From Candidatus Eiseniibacteriota bacterium (lineage in GTDB: Bacteria > Eisenbacteria > RBG-16-71-46 > SZUA-252): 32,231 nt of DNA. Location of the stretch: positions 1 through 32,231 of the forward strand of contig JAEHDN010000162.1 in NCBI GenBank assembly GCA_016880395.1. Direction: 5' to 3'. Made by a program: the position numbers and the translations under genes. This document shows, piece after piece, positions 2,388-21,225 of this stretch. The notes beneath the pieces were generated by a model. The model saw nothing but the letters and a program-made list of their open reading frames with translations. It ran no database searches and had not been told where the DNA came from. The first letter of the stretch is position 1. The number at the start of each line of letters is the position of its first letter.

Positions 2388-4078
2388 CCGGCCTTCCTCG
2401 AGAGCGCCCCCTCCGGCGCCACGTGCTGCGGATACCAGTCGTTGTCCCGGCCCGGCGCGCTGTACTCGTAGGGCCAGCGGTAGACGGACGGGATCTCGTC
2501 GAAGTTGCCATGCTGCGGCGGCGACGGGGCCAGCCATTCGAGCGTGTTCGCGCGCCACGGATTCGCGCCGGCCACGCGCCCTCGCTTCATGCTGCCGAAG
2601 AAGTTGATGAGCAGCGGCACCTGCGAGAAGAGGAGTCCGGCCGTGCCGATCGTGGCGAGGATCTGCATCCCGCCCATGTTGCCGAGCGCGACGAACTGGC
2701 TCGGGTCGTACACGCGCCGCGGGTAGCCGCGCAAGCCCATCACGAACATCGGCAGGAACGTCACGTTCACGAAGAGGAAGGTGCCGAGGAAGTGCAGCCG
2801 GCCCAGGGTCTCGTTCATCATCCGGCCGAACATCTTTGGGTACCAGTAGTAGATCCCCGCGAAGAACGAGAAGAAGACCGGCGGGATCAGCGCGTAGTGG
2901 AAGTGGGCGACAACGAAGTAGGTGTCGTGGATGTAGATGTCGGCCGCCGCGGAGCCGTTCAGGATGCCGGTGACGCCGCCGATCAGGAATACAGCCATCA
3001 TGCCGAGCGCGAAGAGCATCGGCGTCTTGAACTCGATGGAGCCGCGGTAGAGCGTGGCCATGAAGCAGAAGAGAGTCACCGCCACGGGCACCGAGATGAG
3101 GATCGTTGTGAGGCTGAACGGCGCCGCGAGCCGAGGGTCGATGCCGCTCACGAACTGGTGGTGCGCCCATACGACGAAGCTCAGGAGCCCGGTCACCACC
3201 GTTGACCACACGATCATGCGGTAGCCGAAGATCGGCTTCCGCGAGAACACGGGCAGGATCTCCGCGACGATGCCGAGCCCGGGCAGGAGTAGCACGTACA
3301 CCTCCGGGTGGCCGAAGAACCAGAAGAGGTGCTGGAAGAGGAGCGGATCCCCGCCCGCCGCAGGGTTATAGAAGCCAGTTCCCGCCGTCCGGTCGAGGAG
3401 GAGCATCACCGCGCCCGCGACCAGCGGGCCCACCGAGAAGAGGAAGATGATCGAGGCCGCGATCTGCATCCAGACGACCAGCGGCAGGTCGCGCATGCGC
3501 ATGCCGGGCGCGCGCAGGTTGATCGCCGTGGTGATGTAGTTGATGCCCCCCATGAGGAAGGCGACCAGCTCCAGCGCGACCGCCAGGATCCAGAGGTGCA
3601 CGCCCCAGGTATTCCCCGAGTAGGCGGGAATGGCCGACAGGGGCGGATAGGCCGTCCAGCCGACCGGCGACGGCCCGCCCGGCACGAGAAACGAGGAGAC
3701 GAGGACCACGGTCGAGAGGAAGAATGTCCAGTACGAGAGCATGTTGAGCCGCGGGAACGCCATGTCCCGCGTTCCCACCATCAGCGGGATCAGGAAGTTT
3801 CCGAACGCGCCGAGCAGGAGCGGCATGGCGACCCAGAAGATCATCACCGTGCCGTGCATGGTCACCGTTGCGTTGTACTTGATTCCCTGCACGACGCCGA
3901 GGCCAGGCACCGGATGACCGGGATTGGAGAGCTGCAGGCGCATGATCTGCGCGAGAATTCCGCCCAGGAACGCCATCGCGATACCGGTGAAGAGGTACTG
4001 CTTCGCGATGACCTTGTGATCGGTCGAGAAGATCCGGCTCCAGAGGCCCGCGGCCTCGGCGTGTCCGTCGTGGCTCAT
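2384..4078 (-). CDS. ctaD: Cytochrome c oxidase subunit I (A-family heme-copper oxidase)
   Basis: 564 aa. Starts MSHDGHAEAAGLWSRIFSTDHKVIAKQYL. Carries GHPEVYVLLLPGLG (His-Tyr site), WAHHQF and HFHYAL ligand motifs. ATG at 4078 overlaps the subunit II stop (ATGA). Confidence 0.95.
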   Translation of the reverse strand: MSHDGHAEAAGLWSRIFSTDHKVIAKQYLFTGIAMAFLGGILAQIMRLQLSNPGHPVPGLGVVQGIKYNATVTMHGTVMIFWVAMPLLLGAFGNFLIPLMVGTRDMAFPRLNMLSYWTFFLSTVVLVSSFLVPGGPSPVGWTAYPPLSAIPAYSGNTWGVHLWILAVALELVAFLMGGINYITTAINLRAPGMRMRDLPLVVWMQIAASIIFLFSVGPLVAGAVMLLLDRTAGTGFYNPAAGGDPLLFQHLFWFFGHPEVYVLLLPGLGIVAEILPVFSRKPIFGYRMIVWSTVVTGLLSFVVWAHHQFVSGIDPRLAAPFSLTTILISVPVAVTLFCFMATLYRGSIEFKTPMLFALGMMAVFLIGGVTGILNGSAAADIYIHDTYFVVAHFHYALIPPVFFSFFAGIYYWYPKMFGRMMNETLGRLHFLGTFLFVNVTFLPMFVMGLRGYPRRVYDPSQFVALGNMGGMQILATIGTAGLLFSQVPLLINFFGSMKRGRVAGANPWRANTLEWLAPSPPQHGNFDEIPSVYRWPYEYSAPGRDNDWYPQHVAPEGALSRKAG

Positions 4079-4845
4079 CGGGCGATGGCTCCCTTCGTCG
4101 CGGGGGTGGATGCCGGCGCGGCCGGCGAGGTCGAGGCAGCGGAGGTGGTCGCGGGCGAGGCGGCGCCGGCGGCGGGCGGCGGCGAGGCTTCCGCGGCGAC
4201 CCAGCCTCGATAGACGTCGGGCTCGTCCACCGTGAGCGTCCCGCGCATCATTCCGTGCGCGGCACCGCACAGCTCGGCGCAGAGAACGCCGTACGATCCA
4301 GTCCGCGTGGCCTCGAACCATCCGTAGATCGTTCGGCCCGGCACCGCATCCTGCTTCAGCCGGAGCTCGGGAATCCAGAGCGAGTGGAGCGTGTCGCTCG
4401 ATCTGAGCGCGAAGCGAACCACGGCGTTCACCGGAACGTGGATCTCGTTCATCTTCACGACGTCGTCCGGCGTGTCGAGCCGCCCGTCCGGTCCGGGATG
4501 GACGAAGATCCAGGCCCACTGCCGCCCCTCGATGCGGATCTCGAGCTCCGGCTTGGGCTGGGTCTGCTTCATCTTCTCCCAGACGTGGGCGCTCGCCCCG
4601 TCGATGATCAGGTCGCAGGCCAGGATCGCCACGCAGGGGACGAGGATCCACGCGACTTGGCGCCGCCTGTCCCCCGTGACGTAGGCCGCCGGGTGGCCAG
4701 GGCGCCTCCGGTACCGGACGATGAGAAAGACGAGAACCGCTTCGGCGAGGATGAACCAGACGCCCACGATGGCGGTGATCAGCCAGATCAGCCCATCGAT
4801 GTCGTGCGCGTAGGTTGATGCGGCTCTTGGAAGCCAATCGAACAT
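4075..4845 (-). CDS. ctaC: Cytochrome c oxidase subunit II (CuA subunit, no fused cytochrome c domain)
   Basis: Two N-terminal TM helices. CuA ligands HSLWIPEL and CAELCGAAHGMM. The C-terminal ~45 aa form an Ala/Pro/Ser/Thr-rich low-complexity tail. Confidence 0.9.
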   Translation of the reverse strand: MFDWLPRAASTYAHDIDGLIWLITAIVGVWFILAEAVLVFLIVRYRRRPGHPAAYVTGDRRRQVAWILVPCVAILACDLIIDGASAHVWEKMKQTQPKPELEIRIEGRQWAWIFVHPGPDGRLDTPDDVVKMNEIHVPVNAVVRFALRSSDTLHSLWIPELRLKQDAVPGRTIYGWFEATRTGSYGVLCAELCGAAHGMMRGTLTVDEPDVYRGWVAAEASPPPAAGAASPATTSAASTSPAAPASTPATKGAIAR

Positions 4846-5002
4846 GGGCGCACTCCGTGCCTGTTGCGGGCCGGGTGGCGGAGTGCCGCCCGATCACGAC
4901 GCGCGGGCAGTCTCCCAAATGTGGAGCGGCCTTAACAATTCGACGCGAGGGGTAGGGGCAGGTAGACCTGAGGAGTACGGAAACGTCCCGCGGGCCGCGG
5001 GG

Positions 5003-5408: not shown

Positions 5409-6122
5409 TCAATGGAGACCCATCGACTTGTGCGTCTGCGGAATGAGCCGCGCGTCGGGATAGCGGGCCCAGGGCCAGGCCTCGAACACCGCGCCGGCGC
5501 TCCCAGCGCCGTGCTCCGGCTGGAGTACGATCGGTCCGCGATAGCCGAGCGCGTCCAGGATGCCCACCGCATCCTCGATGTCTCCTCCGTCCTGGATCAC
5601 GAACTTGAGCTGGCGCCGCTCCTCGGGCAGCGCGAGGAGCCGCCGCAGCGCGGGCACTTGCGCTTCGACCGGATCGCCGTCGAACGTCCGGGCGCTCCGG
5701 CCCTTGGGCGCGATCGTCCAGAAGTCGATCCGCTCGAGCGCCTCCTCGACGAGCCTCGCCCCGCTCGTCTCGACCGAGATCCAGTACCCGGCGGCGCGAA
5801 GGCCGTCGAGGAGCCGCACCAGCGCGTCCTTGTGGACGATCATCGGCTCGCCCCCGGTCAGGCAGACGCGCCGCACGGCCGGAAAGGCGAGGATCCGGTC
5901 CTTCACCTCCTCCACGGAGAGCGAGGTGAACCGCCCCACACCGGTGTGCGCCAGGGCCTCCGGCTGGTCGCACCAGACGCAGCGGAGCGGGCAGCCGTAG
6001 AATCGGACGAACACGGTGCGCTCCCCGGCGTGGATTCCCTCACCCTGGACGGACAGGAAGATCTCGTGGATTCGCAATGGGGGCGCGGCGGACACGGCGA
6101 TCAGTGTACCCCACCCGGCCAT
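5409..6122 (-). CDS. queE: 7-carboxy-7-deazaguanine synthase (radical SAM)
   Basis: IHEIFLSVQGEG followed by the CPLRCVWC (C-x3-C-x2-C) cluster motif, plus LTGGEP. I chose the ATG at 6122 (237 aa). The track start at 6275 adds a Pro/Arg-rich extension that overlaps the divergent gene. Confidence 0.85.
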   Translation of the reverse strand: MAGWGTLIAVSAAPPLRIHEIFLSVQGEGIHAGERTVFVRFYGCPLRCVWCDQPEALAHTGVGRFTSLSVEEVKDRILAFPAVRRVCLTGGEPMIVHKDALVRLLDGLRAAGYWISVETSGARLVEEALERIDFWTIAPKGRSARTFDGDPVEAQVPALRRLLALPEERRQLKFVIQDGGDIEDAVGILDALGYRGPIVLQPEHGAGSAGAVFEAWPWARYPDARLIPQTHKSMGLH

Positions 6123-6237
6123 TCGCCGGGGCGGACGCGGAGGAGGACGCTCGCCGGGGGGGACGGGCGTTGGTTGACCCCGCCGGGGGCTCCCCTTATG
6201 ATCGGATTCCAGCGCCCAGGGGAGCCCCGGCGCCTGG

Positions 6238-6921
6238 ATGGACCGAACGACCAAGGGACGCATGAAGAAGTCCAATTACGGCCACCTGCCGATCAATCAT
6301 AGCCCCGAGCCGATCCGGCTCTTCCGCTCCGACTTCCTCGAGTTCTTCACGCACATCCACCCGGTGGTCGTGCTGCTCCTCTTCGTGCCGGTCGTGGTGG
6401 CGTTCCTCGTGCGTGGGGTGCGGGACTGGAGCCCGACCGGCTCCCTGGCTCCGGTCGTGGCCGGATACGCGGGGGGGCTCCTCCTCTGGAGCCTCGCGGA
6501 GTACCTGCTCCACCGGTACGTGTTCCACTTCGAGCCCGAGGCGCCGTGGCTCCAGCGGGTCTGGTACCTGATCCACGGCGTGCACCACGAGCAGCCGCAG
6601 TGCAAGACGCGCCTCGTGATGCCCCCGATCCTGAGCATCCCGCTCGCGCTCCTCCACTACACGGCCTTCTACCTCATGATCGGGATCCTGCTCGGCGCGC
6701 CGCGCTGGGTGGCGCCCATCTTCTCCGGGTTCATCACGGGCTACCTGATCTACGACATGGTCCACTACGCGACCCACCACCTCGCGATGAAGTGGGGATT
6801 CCTGAAGTTCCTCAAGCGCTACCACCTGCTCCACCACTACAAGACCCCCGACGACCGGTACGGCATCAGCTCGCCGATCTGGGACGTGGTGTTCGGCACG
6901 CGTCCACCCAAGGACACCTGA
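6238..6921 (+). CDS. Fatty acid hydroxylase superfamily protein (FA2H/Scs7-like di-iron membrane hydroxylase)
   Basis: Histidine boxes HRYVFH, HGVHH, HYATHH and HLLHH, with four hydrophobic segments. The ATG at 6262 (MKKSNYG...), preceded by AAGGGA, may be the true start. Confidence 0.8.
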   Translation: MDRTTKGRMKKSNYGHLPINHSPEPIRLFRSDFLEFFTHIHPVVVLLLFVPVVVAFLVRGVRDWSPTGSLAPVVAGYAGGLLLWSLAEYLLHRYVFHFEPEAPWLQRVWYLIHGVHHEQPQCKTRLVMPPILSIPLALLHYTAFYLMIGILLGAPRWVAPIFSGFITGYLIYDMVHYATHHLAMKWGFLKFLKRYHLLHHYKTPDDRYGISSPIWDVVFGTRPPKDT

Positions 6922-6951
6922 GGCCCGCGCCGGACCCCCGGCCTCTGGCTC

Positions 6952-7725
6952 ATGATCCGCACGGTGATCGAGCGCCTTCGACGGACGCTCGTGACGGTCC
7001 AGGAGTTCACGCTCTTCACGGTCGCCCTCATCCGGACCGCGTTCATTCCTCCCTTCTACGGCCGCGAGATGATGCACCAGCTCTACTTCGCGGGGATCGG
7101 ATCGCTCCTGATCGTGGTCGTGTCCGGGACGGTGGCGGGGCAGGCGCTGGCGCTCCAGCTCGCCCGCGAGCTGGCGCAGTCGGGCGCGAAGAGTCAGCTC
7201 GGGCACTTCATGGTGATCTCGGTGGTCCGCGCGCTGGGACCGGTGCTGGTCGGCATGGTCGTCGCGTCCCGCATGGCCGCCGGGATCACGGCGGAGATCG
7301 GGGCCATGCGCTCGAGCGATCAGATCGACGCGCTCGTGGCGTTCGGGACCGACCCGATGAAGCGGCTGGTGGTCCCCCGCATGGTGGCGCTCGTGATCGC
7401 GCTCCCCGCGCTCGTGATCATCGGTGACACGCTCGCCGTCGCGGGAGGCGGGCTGGTCGGAATGCAGTACCATATCACCTGGGAGTCGTACGCGGCCGGT
7501 GTGCTGCGCTACCTCACGCCGCGCAATCTGCTCGTCGGCATGATCAAGCCGTTCCTGTTCGCGATCATGATCGCGGCCGTCGCCTGCTGGAAGGGCTTCA
7601 CGTCGGAGGGGGGCGCGAAGGGGGTCGGCGTGTCGACCACCGAGTCGGTGGTCATCTGCTCGGTCGGGATCCTGGTGCTGGACGGCATCCTGACCCGGCT
7701 CATCTTCCGGATGCTCCACTGGTGA
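6952..7725 (+). CDS. mlaE: MlaE-family lipid ABC transporter permease
   Basis: 257 aa. Conserved MlaE core RALGPVLVGMVVASRMAAGITAEIGAMRSSDQIDALVAFGTDPMKRLVVPR. Starts 30 nt after the hydroxylase gene. Confidence 0.9.
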   Translation: MIRTVIERLRRTLVTVQEFTLFTVALIRTAFIPPFYGREMMHQLYFAGIGSLLIVVVSGTVAGQALALQLARELAQSGAKSQLGHFMVISVVRALGPVLVGMVVASRMAAGITAEIGAMRSSDQIDALVAFGTDPMKRLVVPRMVALVIALPALVIIGDTLAVAGGGLVGMQYHITWESYAAGVLRYLTPRNLLVGMIKPFLFAIMIAAVACWKGFTSEGGAKGVGVSTTESVVICSVGILVLDGILTRLIFRMLHW

Positions 7726-7729
7726 CACC

Positions 7730-8545
7730 ATGATCGAATTTCGAGACGTGGATTACTCGATCGACGGGCGCCCGATCCTCACAGGCGTGTCCCTGTACGT
7801 GAATCCGGGCGAGACCCGCGTCATCCTGGGACCTTCCGGCTCGGGAAAGAGCACGACGCTCCGCCTCCTGATCGGGCTGGTGCACCCGGACCGGGGTCGT
7901 ATCTTCATCGAGAGAGAGGACGTCACCCAGATCTCCGAGGAACGTTATCGTCAGATCCGCCAGCGCATCGGGATGGTGTTCCAGCAGGGCGCCCTCTTCG
8001 ACTCGATGACCGTCGGAGAGAACGTCGGCTACGCCCTCCTCGAGCAGAACCTCGACGAGGACGAGGTGGACGCGCACGTGCGCGAGGCTCTCCGCCGGGT
8101 GGGTCTGGACGAGGGCCTGATCGACCGGATGCCCGACGAGATGTCGGGCGGCATGCAGCGGCGCGTCGCGATCGCGCGCGCACTCGCCTCACGCGATCCA
8201 AAGATCCTGCTCTACGACGAGCCAACCACCGGGCTCGATCCGCAGAGCTCCGAGCGCATCACGGACCTCATCGTCCATCTCCGCGACACGCTCGGGAAGA
8301 CCGCGATCCTGGTCACGCACGACATCGCCGATGCCTTCAAGGTGGGCAACGTCATCACCGTCCTGAACGAGGGGCGCGTGGTCTTCGACGGCCCGGCGGG
8401 CGATCTCGACCGGGCCAACAACGACTTCATCCACCAGTTTCTGGCGCCCTTCCGCAAGACGGTCGCGGCCGCCGCGCAACGTCTGCCGGCAGGAGTCGCT
8501 CCCCGACCCGCCCCGGCGCCACCCCTGCGGGGAGGAACGTCGTGA
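7730..8545 (+). CDS. mlaF: MlaF-type ABC transporter ATP-binding protein
   Basis: Walker A GPSGSGKST, signature MSGGMQRRVAIARAL, Walker B LLYDEPTTGLD. Confidence 0.9.
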   Translation: MIEFRDVDYSIDGRPILTGVSLYVNPGETRVILGPSGSGKSTTLRLLIGLVHPDRGRIFIEREDVTQISEERYRQIRQRIGMVFQQGALFDSMTVGENVGYALLEQNLDEDEVDAHVREALRRVGLDEGLIDRMPDEMSGGMQRRVAIARALASRDPKILLYDEPTTGLDPQSSERITDLIVHLRDTLGKTAILVTHDIADAFKVGNVITVLNEGRVVFDGPAGDLDRANNDFIHQFLAPFRKTVAAAAQRLPAGVAPRPAPAPPLRGGTS

Positions 8546-9468
8546 AGCGAACGGGCCAGGTCCCCTTCATGCAGCTCAGGATCGGCATCTTCGTCGTGAT
8601 CGCCTGCCTGCTCCTCCTCTGGGCGACCTTCCAGTCGGGCAGCTTCCGCCTGGGCAAGGAGCAGGAGATCCTGGTGCGGTTCGAGCGCATCGGCGGGCTC
8701 GAGGAGGGCGCGATCGTGCGCCTGAACGGCGTGCCGGTCGGCGTCGTGCGGAAGATCTCGCTCGCCCCCGCCACCAACGAGGTCACGGTCAAGCTGGGAG
8801 TGAAGCCGGGCACGCGCGAGCGCCTCCACCAGGGGGCGTACGCCCACATCACCACCGTGGGCTTCCTGGCCGAGCTGTACGTCGAGCTCACCGACGGATA
8901 CGCGACCGCGCCGAGGATCCACTCCGACTCCGAGATCCGGACCGACATGATGGCCGACCCGGCTGCGATCATGAACAAGGCGAACACCATGGCGGACAGT
9001 CTGCAGATCCTCGTGGGCAGCCTGACCGGGGCGGGACGCAGCTTCGCGCAGGGACAGGGTACGCTCGGCCGCCTCAACCGGGACGAGCGCCTCTACGAGC
9101 ACATGGTGTCGCTCACCCACGAGGCGACCCTGCTCACCGAGCGGATCAACCAGAACCAGGCGCGGGTCACGGACCGGCTGGTCATGCTGACCGGCTCGCT
9201 CGACTCCCTCACCTGGCAGCTCCAGCATGGGAACGGCACGGCCGCGCAGCTCCTCCGCAAGGGCGAGCTCTACGACCAGCTCGCGTCGAGCACGGCGCGG
9301 CTCGACTCCATCTTGACCATGGTCGAATCGGGACGCGGGACCTTCGGCCGGATGATGGCCGATACCACGCTCTACGAGGACACGAAGGCGCTGATGGGAT
9401 CGATGAAGCGGCTGATGGCGCAGATCGAAAAGGATCCGAAGAAGTACTTCAAGTTCAGCCTGTTCTAG
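8542..9468 (+). CDS. mlaD: MlaD/MCE-domain protein with an extended C-terminal helical region
   Basis: The GTG at 8542 overlaps the mlaF stop (GTGA) and follows GGAGGA. N-terminal TM helix, then an MCE core (LEEGAIVRLNGVPVGVVRKISL). Confidence 0.85.
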   Translation: MKRTGQVPFMQLRIGIFVVIACLLLLWATFQSGSFRLGKEQEILVRFERIGGLEEGAIVRLNGVPVGVVRKISLAPATNEVTVKLGVKPGTRERLHQGAYAHITTVGFLAELYVELTDGYATAPRIHSDSEIRTDMMADPAAIMNKANTMADSLQILVGSLTGAGRSFAQGQGTLGRLNRDERLYEHMVSLTHEATLLTERINQNQARVTDRLVMLTGSLDSLTWQLQHGNGTAAQLLRKGELYDQLASSTARLDSILTMVESGRGTFGRMMADTTLYEDTKALMGSMKRLMAQIEKDPKKYFKFSLF

Positions 9469-9508
9469 GGGCTCGCGGCCACCGCCGTACGCCCCGGAGC
9501 CCCGCGCC

Positions 9509-12004
9509 TCAGCGCGCGCGAACGACTCGCCGCGTGAAGCTCTCCCCGCCCGCGGTGGCGCGGATCCAGTAGACGCCGCTCGCCGCCGGGCGACCCTTCG
9601 AGTCGTTCCCTCTCCAGACCAGCTCGAGGTTGCCCGCGGGCGCCTGCCCGCGGTAGAGCGTCGCGACCTTGCGACCAGCCACGTCGTAGACCACGACCTC
9701 GACGGTCGCCGCGTCGCGCAGGGTGAGCGAGAGCGTGGCCGCGTGCGACGTCGGGTTGGGATAGGGGGCGCCCAGGATCGCCGGGGGGGTCGTCGAGGGC
9801 GGACCATCGACGACGCCGGTGGGGTGGAGCGCCGCGTCGTAGAGCTCGAAGTCGTCCACCGCAGCCTCCACGATCGATCCCACCCCCTCGTCCTGCGCGA
9901 TGAAGCGCACGCGGACGGCGCCTCCGGGAACGATGTAGTCGCGGACGCGCATGCGCTCGAGGTGCCACTCCGGGTGGCTCTCGTGCGTGTTGAGCATCCG
10001 GACCCACGTGGTGCCGTCGCGCGAGATGTCGACCAGGAGGGAGTCCGGCTCGCCGGGCGTGTTCATGTAGTACCAGCGCCGGAACGCGATCGTCGGCTCG
10101 GTCATGCCGGATATGTCGAGGGGCGGAGTGGTGAGCGTGGTGCGTCCGCCGTCCACGTCCCCGGCGGCGGGGTCGCCGCCCGAGAGTCCGTTGGCCGTGA
10201 CGAAGCAGTAGCCGCTTCCGGGCGTGTAGTCGTCTCCCGGCTGTACCGGTCCCGCCGCGCCGTAGCCCCCTTCGCCCGGCTCCGGATGCTGGGGAGCGCG
10301 GAGCGAGGGATCCGGCGACGCGGGCCCCGACTTGTTCGAGGCCCCCACGTTCGACCCCACGGGGATCGCTCGAAGCCAGAGTCCGTCGATCGCGTTGTCC
10401 CCCGGCGCGCTCAGCGACCAGCCCTTGTCCGTGTCACACGAGTCGTACCAGGCCGCTCGGAGGAGTCGCCAGTCCTGCGTCATCGACCCGCCCGGCTGCA
10501 CGGTCACGGTCCGCTCCTGCGGCACGAAGCCGGGACGGTCCGCGAGGAGCCGGACGGTCTCGGGCATCATCCCGGTCAGGGTGTACGCGCCGAACGATTC
10601 GGTCGTCGCGGCGCGGGGCGTGTCCTCCGCTTCCACCGTCGCTCCCACGATGCCCGCCTGATCGGAGTCGCGACGCACCGCTCCGGAGATCGTCCCGGTC
10701 GGAGCCGTGCTCAGCGTGACGGCGATGGAATCGTGGCTCCCTACCGCGACGGTCACCGGCAGGTACGCGGTCGTGTAGCCGTACTTCCGCACGCGCAGCG
10801 TGTGCGCCCCCGGAGCGAGCGCGAGCCCCGCCGTGCCGCGGAGCTGCGTCCTCGTGGAATCGCTCTCGCCGACCGCGGCGACGTCCACTCCCGTCATCGG
10901 GGCGAGCGCGGCATCTCGAACGAGCACCTTCACCAGCCCGTACTGGGGATTCGAGCGGAAGATGTAGAGCCCGTTCTCGATGTCGCTCGCGATGAAGGTC
11001 CCCGAGGGGAAATTCGCCGATACCTCCCAGACGCCGTGGAACCCCCCGGAGAAGCCGCCGTAGGTGTCGTACCAGCCCCACTCCACGGGCATCGACGGAT
11101 CGTGGAGGTCGAAGAGGTGCACACCCTCCGTGTACCAGGCCACGAACGCGGTGTCCCGCCTCACGTGCACGTTGTGCACGATCGAGAGCGGGTTCACCGT
11201 CAGCTCACGAACCATCGGATGCAACGACAGGTCCGCGATGTCGAAGACCTTCATCGTGCCGTAGTTCTGCTCGTCGCACACGTAGAGATAGCGGCCGTCG
11301 CGCGAGGTCTCCGCGCTGTGGGTCCGCGCGCCGGGGTAGGTCCAGCTCTCGATGTCGTACGGCTGGGTGGGGTCCGAGAAGTCCAGGACGTGCATCGTGG
11401 CGCTCGTGATCCCGCTCGCGTAGAGGGTGTCGTTCCGCACCCAGCTGTCGTGCACGTAGTCGGCCGCGTACGTCCCCACCTCCACCGGATTCTCCGGTTC
11501 CGCGAGCGAGAGGACGCGCATGCCCGCCTGGAGCGCGTCCTGACGCGTGCCGTTCAGGATGAGCAGCGCGCGCGTCGAGTCCACCGACACCGTGTGCTCG
11601 TGGTTGAAGTTGACGGCGTAGGTCCGGACCAGGATCGGATGCTCGGGATCGAGCATCCGTACGATCTGGACGCCCCCTCCCGTCGCCTCGGTGGTGATGT
11701 AGACCCAGCTCCTGTACTGCTTCATCTCGCGCCAGGACGACCCGAGGCCTGCGATGAAGGCCACCTCGTAGGGAGCGCTCGGGTTGGTGATGTTCACGAT
11801 CGACGTTCCGGTCGTGGTGCCGAGGATCGCGTATTCGCGCCCATCGGAGTGCACGTAGCTGCAGCAGGCCGAATAGGCCGCGTAGTTGTCGAGATGGGCG
11901 AGGAGCGTGACGTTCCGCGACACCGCGGCGTCCGAATGGGCGGGGCGGAGCGGTAGGGCCAGGAGCAGGAAGAGGAGGAGCGCGGCGCGGCGCGTGGCGG
12001 TCAT
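9509..12004 (-). CDS. Secreted multidomain protein: LVIVD-repeat beta-propeller, two carboxypeptidase-regulatory-like domains, a jelly-roll domain and a T9SS/FlgD-Ig-like C-terminal domain
   Basis: ATG at 12004 gives a signal peptide, MTATRRAALLLFLLLALPLRPAHS. Repeated LVIVD-type strands (TSIVNITNPSAP, MRVLSLAEPENP, MHVLDFSDPTQP, MKVFDIADLSLHP, VHLFDLHDPSMP). C-terminal PYPNP...VVVYDVAGRKVATL...SGVYWIRA domain. The upstream 113 codons in the track ORF are Arg/Ser/Pro-rich and unlikely to be coding. Confidence 0.75.
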   Translation of the reverse strand: MTATRRAALLLFLLLALPLRPAHSDAAVSRNVTLLAHLDNYAAYSACCSYVHSDGREYAILGTTTGTSIVNITNPSAPYEVAFIAGLGSSWREMKQYRSWVYITTEATGGGVQIVRMLDPEHPILVRTYAVNFNHEHTVSVDSTRALLILNGTRQDALQAGMRVLSLAEPENPVEVGTYAADYVHDSWVRNDTLYASGITSATMHVLDFSDPTQPYDIESWTYPGARTHSAETSRDGRYLYVCDEQNYGTMKVFDIADLSLHPMVRELTVNPLSIVHNVHVRRDTAFVAWYTEGVHLFDLHDPSMPVEWGWYDTYGGFSGGFHGVWEVSANFPSGTFIASDIENGLYIFRSNPQYGLVKVLVRDAALAPMTGVDVAAVGESDSTRTQLRGTAGLALAPGAHTLRVRKYGYTTAYLPVTVAVGSHDSIAVTLSTAPTGTISGAVRRDSDQAGIVGATVEAEDTPRAATTESFGAYTLTGMMPETVRLLADRPGFVPQERTVTVQPGGSMTQDWRLLRAAWYDSCDTDKGWSLSAPGDNAIDGLWLRAIPVGSNVGASNKSGPASPDPSLRAPQHPEPGEGGYGAAGPVQPGDDYTPGSGYCFVTANGLSGGDPAAGDVDGGRTTLTTPPLDISGMTEPTIAFRRWYYMNTPGEPDSLLVDISRDGTTWVRMLNTHESHPEWHLERMRVRDYIVPGGAVRVRFIAQDEGVGSIVEAAVDDFELYDAALHPTGVVDGPPSTTPPAILGAPYPNPTSHAATLSLTLRDAATVEVVVYDVAGRKVATLYRGQAPAGNLELVWRGNDSKGRPAASGVYWIRATAGGESFTRRVVRAR

Positions 12005-12056
12005 GGGGTGCGAAGACCTCGGCGCGGGCTCCGGCGGCCCGTCGCGTCCAGCGAGT

Positions 12057-13046
12057 CTACACCCAGCCTTGCTCGCGATACCAGTCCGCGGTGCGTTGAA
12101 TTCCCTCCTCGAGGGGGAAGCGCGGCTCCCAGCCGAGCTGTGCGCGGATCTTGGCGGACGAGCAGACCCAGTCGCCCGCGCGGATCTCCCGCAGCTTCTC
12201 CCGCGTGAGGAGCGGGGCGCTGCGCGTGAGGAATCCGAGTGCCTCCGAGACGATGGCGCCGGCGTCGAGCAGGAAGAAGGGGGGCGACACGGTCCAGGCC
12301 CACGTGCCGAGCGCGCGCTCGACGCACTCCCCCACCTCCACATAGTCCGTGGCCTCGGGCTCGCCCACGAAGTAGACCTCCCCCAGCGCCCGCGGCTCGA
12401 TGAGCGCGAGACGAACCGCGCGCGCCAGATCCTCCGCGTACACGAGCGTGAACCGCCCGCCCCGCCGGAGCACCGGGAGCACGTGCCGCTTGACCGCGGC
12501 GAAGACCTTGTAGATGGCGGTGTCGCGCGGACCGTAGACGGCGGGGGGCCGGATCACGACGACCGGCAGGCGGCCCTTGAGGAGGAGCGTCAGCTCCTCG
12601 GCGCGGAGCTTGGAGACGCCGTAGGCCGATGCGGGATCGGGGCGCTCCCCCTCGGTCACGGGCCGTCCGTCCGGGGCCGCGGGGCCGGCGACCGACTGGC
12701 TCGACACGAGGAGGAACCGCTCCAGTCCGTCTCCGGCCTGCATGGCGGCGCGGAGCACCCGCTCGGTCGCGTTGACGTTCGCCTCGTGGAATTCCCTCGG
12801 GTACCGGGCCCGCGTCAGTCCTGCCGCGTGGATGATCCATGTGGCGCCGCGGAACGCCTCCGCGATCGGCTCCACGCGGTCGAGCGGGACGCGGGCGATC
12901 TCGGCGGTCGATCCGTCGAGCCAGCGCGTCGAAGAGCCGGGGCGCAGCAGGCAGCGCACGCGCGCCCCGTTCGCGAGCAGCTCGTCGACGATGTGGCTCC
13001 CGACGAAGCCGGAAGCTCCGGTGACGACCGCGAGCGGCGCGCTCAC
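12057..13046 (-). CDS. NAD(P)-dependent epimerase/dehydratase-family SDR reductase
   Basis: Rossmann motif VTGASGFVGSH and catalytic YGVSK (YxxxK). The GTG at 13046 overlaps the upstream stop (GTGA). Confidence 0.85.
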   Translation of the reverse strand: MSAPLAVVTGASGFVGSHIVDELLANGARVRCLLRPGSSTRWLDGSTAEIARVPLDRVEPIAEAFRGATWIIHAAGLTRARYPREFHEANVNATERVLRAAMQAGDGLERFLLVSSQSVAGPAAPDGRPVTEGERPDPASAYGVSKLRAEELTLLLKGRLPVVVIRPPAVYGPRDTAIYKVFAAVKRHVLPVLRRGGRFTLVYAEDLARAVRLALIEPRALGEVYFVGEPEATDYVEVGECVERALGTWAWTVSPPFFLLDAGAIVSEALGFLTRSAPLLTREKLREIRAGDWVCSSAKIRAQLGWEPRFPLEEGIQRTADWYREQGWV

Positions 13047-14137
13047 GGGATCCGTCGTTCGTAGATCCGGTAGACTCCGGCGCGCACGCCGCCGATCCCG
13101 GTGATCAGGTTGTTCACGGCGTCGTTGTCCTCGAGGGTCCAGCCGATCTCGACGTCCGTGTAGCGCCGGCCGTTCAGCGCCTGGACCAGCTCCTCGACGA
13201 GGAGCGGGGCGATGCCCTTTCGCTGCCAGTCGGACCGGACGCCGAGCGCCATGAGCCTCCCCTCCCGGATCCGCGGCAGGTTCCAGAGGAGCCGCACGAT
13301 CCCGAACGGGAAGAGCCGGCCGTCGATCTTGGAGAGGGCCAGGTTGATGTCAGGGATGATCAGTCCGAATCCAACCGTCATGCCGTCGACCTCGACGAAG
13401 CGGACCAGCTCGGAGACGATCGCCGGCCTGAGCTGCTTGGCCATGTGGTCGATCTCGGCATCGGTCATCGGGACGAAGCCCCAGTTGCGCTCCCATGCCT
13501 CGTTGTAGACGCTCTTGACGCGCCCCAGCTCCTCGTCGAAATGGCGCATGTCGATCGGCCGCGCGACGAGCCCCGGCAGCCTCCGCGTCGACGCGGCGAT
13601 CCGGCGGAAGGTGGCAGGGCTTTCCCTGGGAATCGGCGCTCGGAACGAGTAGAGATCCTTCGCCTTCACGAAGCCGGATGCCTCCACCCATCCCGCGTAC
13701 TCCGGCGGATTGTGGGGCATCATGATCGCGGGCCTGCGATCGAAGCCCTCGATGAGGAGGCCGCACTCGTCGTTGGTCGTGAAGCTGAGCGGACCCCGAA
13801 GGACCTCGGCCCCCTGCTCCTTGCCCCAGGCTGCCGCGCGCTCGAGGAGCGCCGCCGCCGCCACCACCGACGTCGCCTCGAAGAAGCCGAAGGCCGCCTG
13901 CCGCTCGCCGTGCGTGAGATCGTGGTTGCGGTCGATCGACGCCGCGACACGGCCCACGACCTCGCCCCCCTCGCGCGCCAGGAAGCAGGCGGCCGTGCCG
14001 TGCTCGAAGAAGGGGTTCTTGCCGGGGGTGAGGCGGGCGTGCTCGTCCGACCGGAGCGGGGGCACCCATCGCGGGTCGTTCCGGTAGCGCGTATAGGGAA
14101 CTTCGATGAAGCGCCGCAGATCCGCGGCGCCCTGCAC
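13043..14137 (-). CDS. Large (~364 aa) GNAT-like N-acyltransferase
   Basis: C-terminal GNAT core with the acyl-CoA pyrophosphate-binding motif (GVRSDWQRKGIAPLL). The N-terminal block FIEVPYTRYRNDPRWVPPL is typical of a widespread ~380-aa GNAT-like family. GTG start; the N-terminus may be slightly mis-set. Confidence 0.7.
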   Translation of the reverse strand: MQGAADLRRFIEVPYTRYRNDPRWVPPLRSDEHARLTPGKNPFFEHGTAACFLAREGGEVVGRVAASIDRNHDLTHGERQAAFGFFEATSVVAAAALLERAAAWGKEQGAEVLRGPLSFTTNDECGLLIEGFDRRPAIMMPHNPPEYAGWVEASGFVKAKDLYSFRAPIPRESPATFRRIAASTRRLPGLVARPIDMRHFDEELGRVKSVYNEAWERNWGFVPMTDAEIDHMAKQLRPAIVSELVRFVEVDGMTVGFGLIIPDINLALSKIDGRLFPFGIVRLLWNLPRIREGRLMALGVRSDWQRKGIAPLLVEELVQALNGRRYTDVEIGWTLEDNDAVNNLITGIGGVRAGVYRIYERRIP

Positions 14138-14169
14138 CGGAATCAGGTCCAGCGCATTTCTCCGGACGG

Positions 14170-15450
14170 CTAGCCCTCTTTCGAGACCAGCTCCAGTCCG
14201 ACCTCCTCGTGCACCTCGCCCACGACCTTGAGGATCGTGTCGAGCTGGTCGTCCTGGTGGGCCGCCATGTACGACGTGCGGAGGAGGTCCCGGCCGGGTG
14301 CGACCGCCGGGACGAGAATCGCGTTCACGAAGACGCCGCGATCGAGGATCTTCTTCCAGACCTGCATCGTCTTCAGCCGGTCACCGATGAAGATCGGCAC
14401 GATGGGCGTTTCGGCGCCGTGGCCGACCTCCAGTCCCTGCGCGCGGAAGCCGGAGCGCATCTTGATCGAGATCTGACGGAGTCGCTCCCGCAGGGCGGGC
14501 TCGGTCTCGATGATCTCGAGCGAGGCCAGCGCGGCCGCCACGCTCGCCGGCGTCATGCTCGCGCTGAAGATGAGGGCGCGCGCGTGGTGCCGGAGATAGT
14601 CCATCACCGCCTTCGGCCCCGCGATGAACCCGCCGAGCGAGGCGAAGGACTTGCTGAAGGTGCCCATGACCAGGTCGACCTGGTCCTCCACGTTCATGGC
14701 CTCGCAGGCGCCGGCCCCGCGCGCGCCGAGCACGCCGATGCCGTGCGCGTCGTCCACCAGGAGCCGCGCGTTGTACTCGCGGGCCAGGCGAACGACGTCC
14801 GGAAGCGGGGCGAGATCCCCCTCCATGCTGTAGAGGCCGTCGACCACGATGAGCTTCCCGGACTTCGCCGGGACGCTGGAGAGGACCCGCTCGAGATCGC
14901 GAATATCGTTGTGACGGAAACGCTTCACATCCCCGAACGAGAGCCGCGCGCCGTCCACGATGCAGGCGTGGGCATCCTTGTCGAGGATGACGACGTCCCC
15001 CTTGTCGGCCAGGGCGGAAATGCTCCCCAGATTCGTCAGGTAGCCGGTGGAGTAGACGAGCGCCGCTTCCTTCCCCATGAAGCGGGCGAGCCGTTCCTCG
15101 AGCTGCTCGTGCAGCTCGAGCGTGCCGTTCAGGAATCGCGAGCCGTTGTTCGAGGTCCCGAAGCGAAGGAGGGCATCCTCGGCCGCCGCGATCACCTTGG
15201 GATGCTTGGTGAGGCCGAGGTAGTTGTTGGACCCGGCCATGATCAGGCGCTTGCCCCCAATCGTGACCTCCGTGCCGTGGTTCTCCGCGATCGGCAGGAA
15301 GTAAGGATAGACGCCGGCCGCCTTGGCCAGCCGATGCTCCTTCCAATCTCGGCACTTGTCGAAGATGTCCAACGCTCGTCCTGTCGTTTGGGATGGGCCG
15401 GTGCGGCCGCTCAGCGGCGCGTTTGAGGAAGTATCCCGAACGATACCCAA
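14170..15450 (-). CDS. Alpha-oxoamine synthase family PLP enzyme (serine palmitoyltransferase-like)
   Basis: GSNNYLGL, DDAHGIGVLG, and the PLP-lysine motif GTFSKSF. N-terminal IFDKC...AGVYPYF resembles the Spt/KBL-type N-terminus. The TTG at 15450 is the most upstream start. A TTG at LDIFDKC, preceded by AGGA, is an alternative. Confidence 0.85.
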   Translation of the reverse strand: MGIVRDTSSNAPLSGRTGPSQTTGRALDIFDKCRDWKEHRLAKAAGVYPYFLPIAENHGTEVTIGGKRLIMAGSNNYLGLTKHPKVIAAAEDALLRFGTSNNGSRFLNGTLELHEQLEERLARFMGKEAALVYSTGYLTNLGSISALADKGDVVILDKDAHACIVDGARLSFGDVKRFRHNDIRDLERVLSSVPAKSGKLIVVDGLYSMEGDLAPLPDVVRLAREYNARLLVDDAHGIGVLGARGAGACEAMNVEDQVDLVMGTFSKSFASLGGFIAGPKAVMDYLRHHARALIFSASMTPASVAAALASLEIIETEPALRERLRQISIKMRSGFRAQGLEVGHGAETPIVPIFIGDRLKTMQVWKKILDRGVFVNAILVPAVAPGRDLLRTSYMAAHQDDQLDTILKVVGEVHEEVGLELVSKEG

Positions 15451-15525
15451 TTCACCCCTTCCGAGTCAATTCGGATGGGGGCCCCGGGACGCCAGTCCCT
15501 TGGCAGACGGTCGGTTGGAGCGGTG

Positions 15526-17244
15526 CTAGCGGATGAGGCGGAGCGTGGTCGAGCGGTTCCCGGACGGGAGGGACAGGACCGCGAAGTAGGCTCCCGAGGC
15601 GCAGGGCGTTCCGTCGGAGCGCGAGCCGTCCCACGCGACCGAGCGGCTCCCGGCGGGGGCGCTGCCCTCGGCCAGGACCCGGACGAGCCTGCCCTGGACA
15701 TCGTGGATGGCCAGGCGGAACCGGGACGGAGCATCGAGCGTGAACTCGATCGTCGTATGTGGATTGAACGGGTTCGGGTGCGGCGTGAGGAATCGGGGCG
15801 CCGCCGCGGGCGACGACGGCTCGACACCCGTGCCGACCGGCGAGAGGCGGAACGCGTACACGTTGGCAGACCCGGAGCGATAGTCCTCCCACGCGAAGAT
15901 CGAGCCACCGAAGCCATCGGCCGCGGACGACGTCAGATGCCTGGTGCCCGCGCTGGTGGCGATGCGCACACCGTTCGGCGACCAGCGGATCGCGCCTGCC
16001 AGTGTCAGGCCCTGTGCGTAGATATCCTCGTCGGTAGCGGCGCCGCGCTCATCGTCCCAGCCCACGACCACGCCGCCGCTCTTGTCGGGCACGATCGTGA
16101 GGGCGAACTGGCCGCTGTCCGCCGTGCAGACGGCGATCCCGTTCCCGACCCAGCCAAGCGCGCCGGTCGAGTCCACGCGCTGCGCGAAGACGTCCGGATA
16201 CCTCGATCCGTTCCGCGAATCGGTCCAGGCGACGATCGCGCCCGCGATGCCGTCGGTCGCGACGAGCGGATGTACTTGGGTGCTGTCCTGGTCGCAGAGC
16301 TGGACGCCGTTCGCGGGCCAGCGCGGCGTTCCGTCGGGCTTGATGCGCTGCACGAAGATGTCGGAGTCGATGCCGTTCCGGGTGTCCTGCCACGTGACCA
16401 GGAGACCGAACTTGCCGTCGGAGGCGATGGTCGGCTCGACCTGATCCTGCACGACGGCGGCTACGGGCACGCCGTCGAGAGCCCAGCGCGGATTGCCGCC
16501 CGAGTCGAGCGACTGCGCGTAGATGTCGTTGTCGAAGGATCCGTTTCGCGCGTCCCGCCAGACCACGAACGCCCCCCCGACGCCGTCGGTGAGGATCCGG
16601 ACGTCGGTCTGCTGCCCAGGCGCGGTGCAGACCGCGACGCCGTCGGGCGTCCATTGGGGCACGCCGGACGCGTTCACGCGCTGCGCGTAGATGTCGCCAT
16701 TCAGCAAGAGGTGCGTGTCGCGCCACGCCACGATCGCCCCGCCGGCCCCATCCGGGGTGATGACCTCGAGGATCTGGTTCCCGATCGCGGTGCAGAGCGG
16801 AACGCCCGTCGCGGGCGTCCAGAGGAGCGTGCCGCTCCCGTTGAGCGCCTGCGCGTAGATGTCGTACGTGCCGGTGCGGCGGTCCTGCCAGGCCACGATG
16901 ATCCCGCCGGAGCCGTTGCCGCAGAGGACGGGCGACTCCTGATGGTTCCCCACGGTGCAGACCGCCACGCCGCCGCTACCCCACAAACGGGTGCCGCCCA
17001 TGTCGAACCGCTGGGCGTAGATGTCGGCGCTGTCCGACCGGAAGTCCTGCCAGACGACGAACAGCCCGCCCGAGCCGTCGGAGATGGTCTGCGAGTTGAC
17101 CTGATTGTTCGGCGCGATCGCGGCCTGATTGCCGTTGGTGGCCCAGGAGCCGAACGCCATTCCGGGCAGGAGGCAACACGCGAAGAGGAGGGACCCGGCC
17201 AGTGGCGAGACGAAGCTCGGGGCGATTCCCGATCGCGGGTGCAT
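15526..17244 (-). CDS. Secreted protein with eight ~55-aa tandem repeats (probable beta-propeller) and a T9SS/FlgD-Ig-like C-terminal domain
   Basis: ATG at 17244 gives a signal peptide (MHPRSGIAPSFVSPLAGSLLFACCLLPGMAFG). Eight units match DG.GG..V.W.D.R.....DIYAQR....G...W...GV.VC. C-terminal PHPNPFNP...LAIHDVQGRLVRVL...SGAYFAVL domain. Confidence 0.75.
   Translation of the reverse strand: MHPRSGIAPSFVSPLAGSLLFACCLLPGMAFGSWATNGNQAAIAPNNQVNSQTISDGSGGLFVVWQDFRSDSADIYAQRFDMGGTRLWGSGGVAVCTVGNHQESPVLCGNGSGGIIVAWQDRRTGTYDIYAQALNGSGTLLWTPATGVPLCTAIGNQILEVITPDGAGGAIVAWRDTHLLLNGDIYAQRVNASGVPQWTPDGVAVCTAPGQQTDVRILTDGVGGAFVVWRDARNGSFDNDIYAQSLDSGGNPRWALDGVPVAAVVQDQVEPTIASDGKFGLLVTWQDTRNGIDSDIFVQRIKPDGTPRWPANGVQLCDQDSTQVHPLVATDGIAGAIVAWTDSRNGSRYPDVFAQRVDSTGALGWVGNGIAVCTADSGQFALTIVPDKSGGVVVGWDDERGAATDEDIYAQGLTLAGAIRWSPNGVRIATSAGTRHLTSSAADGFGGSIFAWEDYRSGSANVYAFRLSPVGTGVEPSSPAAAPRFLTPHPNPFNPHTTIEFTLDAPSRFRLAIHDVQGRLVRVLAEGSAPAGSRSVAWDGSRSDGTPCASGAYFAVLSLPSGNRSTTLRLIR
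15832..17136 (-). repeat. Eight tandem ~165-nt coding repeats (protein-level ~55-aa units)
   Basis: Periodicity read from the translation (residues ~37-471). The units have diverged at DNA level. Confidence 0.7.
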
Positions 17245-17531
17245 GCGAGTAGCGGAGGAAGTCGTGCGCTTGCGGGTCACGGTTGCGCCGAATAGTATGC
17301 AGGATATGGGCCTTCCGGACAACCCGGATTGGGGTGTGGAAGCTCTCTTATAGCTACCTAATTCACATGGAGTTACACTGCTGCGCCATATCCCCCGATG
17401 GGCGCCTGGCTGGGTCCGGCCTCGGGGCTGGGTGGTTTGGCGGATCGGGATGGTTTTTTCTGGGGGAATTCGCACACGACGGCCCGTCCCCGGATCGCCC
17501 TCCCCTCACACACTTCGTGGAGGATCCATCG

Positions 17532-19843: not shown

Positions 19844-20653
19844 GTGTGCACACTCCTGATCGGCATCGACGTCCTCGGCCCAGGGACCGCCGTGATCGGC
19901 GCGAACCGGGACGAGTCTCCCGAGCGCGCCACGGCGGGCCCGGGCGTTCTCGTCCCGACCCCGCGCGTCGTCGGCGGGCGTGACCTCGTGGCCGGTGGCA
20001 CCTGGCTCGCCGTGCGCGAGGGGCGGTTCGTCGCGGCCCTCATGAACCGACGGCCACGCCCTGGCGATCCCACCGAGTCCCTCCGCTCCCGCGGCCTTCT
20101 CTGCCTCGAGACGGCCGCCTCCGCGCCGCTCGACCAGCCCGCTCGCATCGATCCCGCGACCGGCGAGCAACGCCCGGCCGCATGGGATGCCGCGCTTCGG
20201 CGACTCGGTGACCAAGCCTATGCGCGCTGCACGCTCGTGGGGATCGACCCCGACCTTGGATCCTGGGCGGTGGCGGGAGGCGCCGGCGAGGCGCCGCGCG
20301 GCGTGGCGATTCCGGCCGGGTGGCACGCGATCACCCACGGCGAGCTGGACGATCCCGACGAGCCGCGCACGAGGCACATGATCGCGAGGCTCGAGGGACA
20401 GCGTCCCGGCGGCGTGGATGGGGCACTCGACCTCCTCGCTTCTCTCCTGCGCGGCCACGGCGAGGACGGCTCGCCGCCGGTCTGCATCCACCGGGACCGC
20501 TTCCCCACCGTGTCGAGCACGCTGCTCGCGCTGGGCGCGCTCGACCGGCCGCGCTACCTTCACGCCGATGGCCCGCCCTGCGTCACGGAGTACCGCGACC
20601 ACTCCGCACTGCTCTGCGCGGACGCCGAGTCCGATCCGGGGGAACGACCATGA
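19844..20653 (+). CDS. NRDE-family protein (TANGO2 homolog)
   Basis: GTG start gives (M)CTLLIG, then the literal GANRDE motif. Lies 17 nt downstream of citrate synthase. Only the tail of track ORF 18944..20653 is coding. Confidence 0.8.
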   Translation: MCTLLIGIDVLGPGTAVIGANRDESPERATAGPGVLVPTPRVVGGRDLVAGGTWLAVREGRFVAALMNRRPRPGDPTESLRSRGLLCLETAASAPLDQPARIDPATGEQRPAAWDAALRRLGDQAYARCTLVGIDPDLGSWAVAGGAGEAPRGVAIPAGWHAITHGELDDPDEPRTRHMIARLEGQRPGGVDGALDLLASLLRGHGEDGSPPVCIHRDRFPTVSSTLLALGALDRPRYLHADGPPCVTEYRDHSALLCADAESDPGERP

Positions 20654-21225
20654 CTGCTCCATCCCACGATCTCACCCTCATCTCGTTCTACGTCTACCTC
20701 GTCCTCTTCTTCCTGGTGGAGCGCTTCCTCACGCGCTCGACCCTGGGCACGTCCGGCCGGGGCGATCGGGATCCGCTCACGCCGCTCTTCTTCGTGATCC
20801 CCGCCATCGGGATCTTCACCTGGATGTTCCTGATGCATCGCGCGCTCCCGCCCCATCCGACGTGGCTCCAGTATGGCGCGGGGCTGGTGCTGGGACTCGG
20901 GGGCATGGCCATGCGCATCGCGGGCAAGCGGACGCTCGGACGCATGTTCACGGTGCGGGTCCAGATCCAGGAGGACCATCGAATCGTGGACACCGGGCTC
21001 TACGCCCGCGTGCGCCATCCCCTCTACACGGGATTCATCCTCGAGTGGATGGCGCCGCCGCTCCTCCTGGGGAGCCCTGTCGGGTTCCTCCTGCTCACCC
21101 TGCCCCTCGCCATCGTCATCCTGCTGCGCATTCCGAGGGAGGAGGAGCTCCTGATCGAGGCGTTCGGGGACGACTACCGCGCGTACATGGCGCGGACCAA
21201 GCGGCTGATCCCGGGGATCTGGTAG
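20650..21225 (+). CDS. Isoprenylcysteine carboxyl methyltransferase (ICMT/PEMT) family membrane methyltransferase
   Basis: ATG overlaps the NRDE stop (ATGA). Polytopic. Contains GLYARVRHPLYTGFILEW and EEELLIEAFGDDYRAYMARTKRLIPGIW. Confidence 0.85.
   Translation: MTAPSHDLTLISFYVYLVLFFLVERFLTRSTLGTSGRGDRDPLTPLFFVIPAIGIFTWMFLMHRALPPHPTWLQYGAGLVLGLGGMAMRIAGKRTLGRMFTVRVQIQEDHRIVDTGLYARVRHPLYTGFILEWMAPPLLLGSPVGFLLLTLPLAIVILLRIPREEELLIEAFGDDYRAYMARTKRLIPGIW

Follow-up and report, generated by a model that had tools for sequence, protein, structure and literature searches.

The bacterial ceramide pathway was defined in Caulobacter. Padilla-Gomez et al. reported two further genes to be required for dihydroceramide, 'aca' (CC_1154, yghO ECD_02850, Swit_3908 and others) and 'epi' (CC_1164, ECD_02852 and others). 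In later papers CC_1154 is named cerS and CC_1164 cerR; in NA1000, bcerS is CCNA_01212 and cerR CCNA_01222. Reports of homologues covered 9 phyla at first and later about 40, the latter on metagenome-assembled genomes (MAGs) of the Black Sea with co-localisation as one criterion (Ding et al. 2024). We analysed a stretch of 32,231 nucleotides of a Candidatus Eiseniibacteriota bacterium (contig JAEHDN010000162.1, assembly GCA_016880395.1), in the following called the window, for a trio of genes that very probably constitutes a three-gene operon, spt-bcerS-cerR, for de novo bacterial-type ceramide synthesis in an Eisenbacteria genome. We read the locus in this way because each of the three proteins is related to the enzyme of the same step in Proteobacteria and because the trio travels together across phyla.

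The trio comprises three co-directional open reading frames (ORFs) on the minus strand within positions 12057..15450 of the window, which has a G+C content of about 69%. The features of the region are the following.

14170..15372, minus strand: candidate spt, an alpha-oxoamine synthase (AOS) of 400 aa from TTG 15372; the mechanical ORF extends over 14170..15450, with 426 aa from TTG 15450.
13043..14137, minus strand: candidate bcerS, a GNAT-like protein of 364 aa from GTG 14137, possibly 369 aa from CTG 14152.
12057..13046, minus strand: candidate cerR, an extended short-chain dehydrogenase/reductase (SDR) of 329 aa with a GTG start.
15440..15469, minus strand: a promoter-like site, TTGACT and TATCGT separated by 18 nt, on weak evidence.

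Between the stop codon of the AOS gene (TAG at 14170) and the GTG of the GNAT gene at 14137 lie 32 nt, and the GNAT stop and the SDR start share the bases GTGA at 13046..13043. A scan of the three-gene region for terminator-like sites gave none on the minus strand in 11800..15800. Gene direction, the 32-nt gap and the overlap had been described in an earlier prediction on this DNA, the original prediction, and are present as described there; the motifs it quoted were all located, GTFSKS in the AOS, QRKGIA and DPRWVPPL in the GNAT protein and GASGFVG and YGVSK in the SDR. Pfam assigned the AOS to Aminotran_1_2 (E 4e-57), the SDR to Epimerase (E 3e-32) and the GNAT-like protein to Acetyltransf_1 (E 2e-8), the last match covering the C-terminal third only (residues 272-344). 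TTG 15372, rather than 15450, is the most likely start of the AOS, as five close relatives begin at this point with the N-terminus MD(L/I)F(D/A)KC, represented in the window by MDIFDKC; the 26-codon extension up to 15450 is not conserved among relatives. The promoter-like site, one site in a consensus scan against 0.2 expected in shuffles, is located inside this extension, which fits the start at 15372. For the GNAT gene a CTG start codon at 14152 is possible in this sub-lineage, because the closest relative has the peptide LDLIPV conserved directly upstream of its GTG as well, and this peptide matches the N-terminus MDVVPV of other relatives. The five codons involved (14138..14152, minus strand) read LDLIP and have one synonymous difference to the closest relative (L017, upstream of 10001).

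The spt product is predicted to condense serine and a long-chain acyl thioester to 3-ketosphinganine. The top NCBIfam model for the AOS was SerpalmtaseCFB, the serine palmitoyltransferase (Spt) model of the Cytophaga-Flavobacterium-Bacteroides (CFB) type, with 496 bits, followed by the beta-proteobacterial Spt (411 bits), bioF (383 bits) and Kbl (350 bits), while the alphaproteobacterial Spt model gave 329 bits. A search of the PDB ranked the Spt of Sphingobacterium multivorum first with 391 bits and the Spt of Sphingomonas next with 299 bits; other AOS enzymes, including cysteate acyltransferases, reached 229-248 bits. The identity to the S. multivorum enzyme is about 48%, and the alignment is gapless through the active-site region. 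The catalytic set is kept and aligned with reference Spt, Kbl and BioF: in the 426-aa numbering, the lysine Lys267 in GTFSKS that binds pyridoxal 5'-phosphate (PLP), His161, Asp234/His236 and Arg391. A distance-based neighbor-joining tree was calculated from 15 sequences with 500 bootstraps, scored by bipartitions. It comprised the window AOS, four close relatives, the AOS of the trios of Rubrobacter, Streptomyces and Aureispira, an AOS from a Priestia plasmid and the Spt of S. multivorum, Sphingomonas and E. coli, with annotated Kbl, BioF and HemA as outgroups; cysteate acyltransferases were not part of the tree. The split of Kbl, BioF and HemA from all Spt-like sequences, the window AOS among them, was obtained in 92% of the bootstraps. 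The only active-site difference reported between Spt and SulA, the cysteate acyl-ACP transferase, is Lys281 of SulA, 30 residues past the PLP lysine, described as conserved across the known SulA enzymes, with an alanine in Spt (PMC9304779). The window AOS has Ala297 at this position (Lys267 + 30), and in the gapless alignment the stretch FSASMTPAS is identical to S. multivorum Spt. Given the score rankings, the 92% split and Ala297, the AOS is, as judged from its sequence, Spt-like and neither a Kbl/BioF nor a SulA enzyme.

The second gene, bcerS, is predicted to N-acylate the long-chain base. The comparison with Caulobacter was made indirectly, via orthologues from E. coli and Sphingomonas that PMC9386255 and PMC11324152 name. 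In tblastn searches of annotated plasmid records, the GNAT protein aligned over 98% of the query with E. coli YghO (36% identity, E 1e-78) and over the full length with an N-acetyltransferase of Sphingomonas parapaucimobilis (33% identity, E 9e-80). Both homologues are situated in sphingolipid loci. In E. coli, lptF-lptG is followed by spt-acp-epimerase-acyl-AMP ligase and this by yghO; in Sphingomonas the gene order is an NAD(P)H-binding protein, acp, an Spt-type aminotransferase with a generic annotation, lptF-lptG, a desaturase and the acetyltransferase. E. coli K-12 lacks the remainder of the cluster, and its yghO usually carries a pseudogene annotation. With full-length homologues in YghO and Sphingomonas and the published orthology to CC_1154, the GNAT protein can be assigned to the bCerS/CerS/YghO family. 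An AlphaFold (AF2) model with a mean predicted local distance difference test (pLDDT) score of 85.5 presented a tandem-GNAT fold, and the top Foldseek matches were tandem GNAT acyltransferases, with no bCerS structure among the matches. A sequence search of the PDB with the GNAT protein gave nothing useful, so that only the fold search was informative. Relatives number in the thousands and carry merely the name 'GNAT family N-acetyltransferase', the closest named ones originating from Candidatus Eisenbacteria; at 50% identity and E <= 1e-30 the family forms 1335 clusters. Among the relatives were two natural fusions of an N-terminal AOS (Aminotran_1_2) to a C-terminal bCerS-like GNAT, P0159 (780 aa) and P0266 (777 aa), unless these result from merged gene calls. 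A further long relative, P0121 (784 aa), is a tandem of two GNAT-type units and not an AOS-GNAT fusion.

The SDR is predicted to be a ketoreductase of the CerR family that reduces the 3-keto group to yield dihydroceramide. It was compared with the CerR orthologues of E. coli and Sphingomonas, the epimerase-family genes beside acpR-spt, and aligned over its full length with both (29% identity, E 2e-35, and 30% identity, E 3e-32, respectively); the motifs GASGFVG (GxxGxxG) and YGVSK (YxxxK) align with the same motifs in the orthologues. Neither the SDR nor these orthologues pass an NCBIfam model, and they have a common sub-threshold pattern with HpnA first, followed by OleD and SdmB. An identity of about 30% is ordinary among extended SDRs and does not set the window protein apart, thus the assignment to CerR rests largely on synteny. 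The CerR of Caulobacter has been reported to be periplasmic. In the window SDR the Rossmann motif begins at residue 10, too close to the N-terminus for a cleavable signal peptide to precede it, and the E. coli and Sphingomonas orthologues have the same build. The original prediction had read the trio as Caulobacter-type Spt, bCerS and CerR, and this reading held under every test run: in the phylogeny the AOS fell with Spt, apart from Kbl, BioF and HemA, the GNAT protein proved to be a full-length homologue of the CC_1154 orthologues, and the SDR aligned from end to end with the CerR orthologues, synteny carrying much of the weight in this last case.

Linkage of the three genes was followed across bacteria with a profile of the GNAT protein, built from a five-sequence alignment and scanned over one genome per GTDB species. 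It revealed 595 relatives, of which the best 80 loci were kept; all of these are MAGs and none is from Caulobacter. The phyla represented among these 80 include Eisenbacteria, Gemmatimonadota, Zixibacteria, Acidobacteriota, Myxococcota and Bdellovibrionota, further Verrucomicrobiota, Planctomycetota, Chloroflexota, Ignavibacteria and others. Linkage was counted in the 50 species-representative loci of this set that offered at least 3 kb on both sides. An AOS gene was located within 3 kb of the GNAT gene in 42 of the 50 loci, an SDR homologue in 35, and both together in 34. Twenty-three of the 50 loci, from at least ten phyla, have AOS, GNAT and SDR in the same order and on the same strand as the window. 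As this order recurs in so many loci from many phyla, the arrangement is far beyond chance. The trio is also present in the same order on replicons of Rubrobacter radiotolerans and of a Streptomyces, and Aureispira possesses all three genes with the SDR in divergent orientation. The closest locus belongs to a Candidatus Eisenbacteria MAG with identities of 94% for the AOS, 78% for the GNAT protein and 95% for citrate synthase; these values fix the host lineage, and the Eisenbacteria host suggested in the original prediction was right.

Relatives of single trio members were observed in other surroundings. A plasmid of Priestia megaterium (Bacillota; NZ_CP137804.1, L013 7001..8215) codes for a lone Spt-like AOS with 52% identity to the window AOS; acyltransferase-family and methyltransferase genes adjoin it, and bCerS and CerR genes are absent there. 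On a Roseomonas mucosa plasmid (L011 4795..9098) and in Sphingomonas (L003 8264..13131), a bCerS homologue follows LptF/LptG paralogues and a gene of the sterol-desaturase or fatty-acid-desaturase family. Roseomonas records give the homologue the name 'dATP pyrophosphohydrolase', apparently in error.

In the proposed pathway, the PLP-dependent Spt would condense L-serine with a long-chain acyl thioester to 3-ketosphinganine. The acyl donor would probably be acyl-CoA or a housekeeping acyl-ACP, because a dedicated acyl carrier protein (ACP) or acyl-ACP synthetase gene is not present; none was found nearby among the scanned ORFs of the window, which confirms the original prediction for the genes adjacent to the trio. 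Alpha-, Beta- and Gammaproteobacteria have a dedicated ACP and acyl-ACP synthetase for this pathway, and the lack of such genes fits the CFB-like type of the window Spt. The tandem-GNAT bCerS would then attach a second acyl chain to the amine to form oxo-ceramide, and the extended-SDR CerR would use NAD(P)H for the reduction of the 3-keto group, yielding dihydroceramide. This sequence of acylation and subsequent reduction is carried over from the work on Caulobacter, and even for Caulobacter the order of the two steps is disputed. The location of bcerS between spt and cerR, the translational coupling of bcerS and cerR and the Spt-bCerS fusions fit an acylation right after the condensation. In particular, the embedded bcerS and the fusions suggest that Spt passes 3-ketosphinganine straight on to bCerS, with acylation before reduction.

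Several observations weigh against this reading. The ceramide pathway in Eisenbacteria is a prediction from genes, and it is linked to the Caulobacter enzymes by way of orthologue lists that were published for E. coli and Sphingomonas. The similarity of the SDR to the CerR orthologues, at about 30% identity, does not exceed its score with the HpnA model (125 bits). In seven of the 50 GNAT loci both partner genes are absent from the vicinity, for which reason the GNAT family may not be exclusively dedicated to ceramides. The AOS stays under the trusted cut-offs of all three Spt equivalogs, with 496 versus 640 bits for CFB, 411 versus 500 for BetaP and 329 versus 670 for AlphaP. The Spt equivalog models are clade-specific, as the E. 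coli Spt passes only the model of its own clade; the failure at the cut-offs thus shows a new lineage and not a different function. Because of these scores the specificity for serine is nevertheless only inferred, and a use of alanine or glycine, leading to 1-deoxy-type bases, is conceivable.

The reading that survives best besides the ceramide operon starts from this last point. The enzymes would be as described, with an AOS that uses another amino acid such as alanine or glycine, and the product, instead of a canonical ceramide, would be a lipid of the 1-deoxy-ceramide type or a different N-acylated long-chain amino alcohol. We consider this improbable: the position under the Spt cut-offs would permit it and no tested sequence rule separates serine users from alanine users, but the PLP-lysine stretch and the phosphate-binding loop are nearly identical to those of the serine-using S. 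multivorum enzyme. More doubtful still, and in our view very unlikely, is a sulfonolipid operon of the capnine/sulfobacin type, the alternative offered by the original prediction, in which cysteate would take the place of serine in the condensation by the AOS and 3-ketocapnine would be the substrate of the SDR and the GNAT protein. The chemistry is analogous and requires the same three enzyme classes, and the solved cysteate acyltransferases are still recognisable AOS relatives with 229-246 bits. Eisenbacteria are usually placed near the Bacteroidota, in which sulfonolipids occur. The marker lysine of SulA is replaced by Ala297, however, and the surrounding stretch is the same as in S. multivorum Spt; the AOS reached 391 bits with this Spt compared to 246 and 229 bits with the cysteate acyltransferases, and no cysteate-synthase-like family match was detected among the scanned ORFs of the window. 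On the basis of the alanine at the marker position and the score ranking, the sulfonolipid reading was rejected. That the trio has no part in a lipid pathway, with a housekeeping AOS of the Kbl/BioF type lying beside an unrelated acetyltransferase and a sugar epimerase, deserves hardly any credence and was largely refuted: the generic names 'GNAT family N-acetyltransferase' and 'NAD-dependent epimerase/dehydratase' and the 350-383 bits that the bioF and Kbl models still attain on the AOS would allow it, but the NCBIfam and PDB score rankings and the tree place the AOS with Spt, the trio stays together in many phyla, each of its proteins has homologues in described sphingolipid loci, and neither a threonine dehydrogenase nor a bio gene is located nearby, whereas the reference kbl adjoins tdh and bioF lies between bioB and bioC.

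Convergent to the ceramide operon runs a second group of genes on the plus strand (6238..9468) with the order FA_hydroxylase-MlaE-MlaF-MlaD and gaps of 30, 4 and -4 nt.

6238..6921, plus strand: Scs7/FA2H-like fatty-acid 2-hydroxylase, first gene of the convergent operon (Pfam FA_hydroxylase, E 1e-19).
6952..7725, plus strand: MlaE (Pfam and NCBIfam matches).
7730..8545, plus strand: MlaF-type ATPase (Pfam and NCBIfam matches).
8542..9468, plus strand: MlaD (Pfam and NCBIfam matches).

The only relative of the hydroxylase in the PDB is yeast Scs7p, the ceramide very-long-chain fatty acid 2-hydroxylase (E 3.5e-25). The alignment with Scs7p/FA2H (PDB 4zr0, 4zr1) covers residues 16-222 of 227 of the window protein and 173-371 of 392 of the yeast protein, hence its C-terminal part only. 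In comparison to Scs7p, the window hydroxylase has no cytochrome b5 domain, and its operon with MlaEFD has no eukaryotic counterpart. Ten of the 50 loci, from Myxococcota, Bdellovibrionota and Verrucomicrobiota, carry a hydroxylase homologue at most 3 kb away from the GNAT gene. The hydroxylase may thus be associated with the pathway and may add a 2-hydroxyl group to the acyl chain of the ceramide.

The pairing of the hydroxylase with MlaEFD, a lipid ABC transporter, suggests a link to sphingolipid modification and transport. Adjacency of Mla genes to the trio is kept in the Eisenbacteria-type relatives and absent from more distant Eisenbacteria loci; by itself it proves little, because the rest of the neighbourhood is equally conserved in those relatives. 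In an unrelated lineage, an uncultured bacterium (CAYZGU010000012.1, L063), the genes MlaE-MlaF-MlaD-AOS-GNAT are co-directional and closely spaced at 5699..11098 on the plus strand. This locus has no CerR-type SDR; an oxidoreductase of the GFO/IDH/MocA type is located about 750 nt downstream. A 2026 preprint reported that LptF2/G2 transport sphingolipids in Caulobacter and asked what other producers use; Mla is unmentioned there. Homologues of LptF/G, AcpR and AasR were not found in the window. Among the best 80 of the 595 loci, LptF/G or AcpR homologues were not found either, and AasR homologues were present in two only. MlaEFD is named here, speculatively, as a candidate ceramide transporter. 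It is a tentative proposal, which we would rate as rather unlikely, that an MlaFED-type ABC transporter is dedicated to the movement of (2-hydroxy)ceramide between the inner and outer membranes in this Eisenbacteria clade and, independently, in L063, and there takes the role of Caulobacter LptF2/G2. The proposal stems from the hydroxylase-MlaEFD operon abutting the trio and from the MlaE-MlaF-MlaD-Spt-bCerS string of L063.

The two operons are separated by a gene for a large secreted protein (9509..12004, minus strand) between cerR and MlaD, which is not conserved. It has a signal-peptide-like N-terminus, CarboxypepD_reg, LVIVD repeats, a C-terminal FlgD_ig and a weak Por_Secre_tail. As a member of the operon it was rejected, being absent in the relatives L007 and L008. 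On the other flank, a large protein at 15526..17475 (minus strand) also has a C-terminal FlgD_ig; both proteins are variably present in relatives and hence are not seen as parts of the pathway. At a greater distance, the cytochrome c oxidase subunits COX2, COX1, COX3 and COX4-like at 1447..4918 (minus strand) indicate aerobic respiration in this Eisenbacteria-type genome. An ICMT/PEMT-type (phospholipid) membrane methyltransferase is encoded at 20320..21225 (plus strand), about 5 kb from the trio.

If the prediction is correct, members of the uncultured Eisenbacteria, which are common in soils, make ceramide-type lipids, and one more lineage joins the growing list of bacterial sphingolipid producers, with relevance for environmental sphingolipid signals. 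The conceptual gain is little, as earlier publications describe both the pathway of three enzymes and its wide occurrence; new is a predicted operon in an unstudied phylum, which is unsurprising to specialists. The novelty had been overrated in the original prediction, since Spt/bCerS/CerR clusters were already known from the MAGs of about 40 phyla. The text and supplement of Ding et al. 2024 do not name Eisenbacteria, which could still be one of the approximately 40 phyla counted there; a paper linking Eisenbacteria with sphingolipid synthesis was not found in the literature searched. For specialists the surroundings are of more interest in three respects: the compact operon with cerS between spt and cerR departs from the published rule of separate operons, the fusions of Spt and bCerS are relevant to the dispute over whether acylation or reduction comes first, and the repeated pairing with an Scs7-like hydroxylase and, in two lineages, with MlaEFD presents a testable candidate for sphingolipid transport in bacteria without LptF2/G2 paralogues, the question left open by the 2026 Caulobacter preprint.

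Among the described systems, the SulA of Alistipes finegoldii has the AOS fold, the catalytic residues and analogous downstream steps in common with the window; it differs in Lys281, an alanine in the window AOS, and the similarity is lower than that to Spt. The Spt of S. multivorum (PDB 3a2b, 8guh) is the closest solved relative with 391 bits and is identical in GTFSKS and FSASMTPAS, but it belongs to a different phylum, and the trio genes of Bacteroidota have been described as unclustered (Ding et al. 2024), whereas those of the window form one operon. The 'clade B' Spt-like proteins of Ding et al. 2024 (ISME J) represent the same trio, with the Spt-like gene co-localised with bCerS and CerR in uncultured lineages, and the present survey likewise shows the trio pattern in soil and freshwater MAGs. 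With Caulobacter crescentus, in which the enzymes are Spt (CC_1162/CCNA_01220), CerS/bCerS (CC_1154/CCNA_01212) and CerR (CC_1164/CCNA_01222), the window has the same three families in common, as judged via the orthologues of E. coli and Sphingomonas, namely a PLP-dependent AOS, a GNAT-type N-acyltransferase of about 370 aa and an epimerase-family SDR. The identities to the proteobacterial enzymes are only 29-42%, and the window Spt resembles the CFB type (496 bits) more than the alphaproteobacterial one (329 bits). Dedicated AcpR, AasR and LptF2/G2 paralogues, present in Caulobacter, are missing in the window. According to a published statement, cerS is always located in a different operon from spt and cerR in the bacteria studied so far. 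In the window bcerS lies between spt and cerR in one apparent, compact operon, and the rule of separate operons does not hold at this locus.

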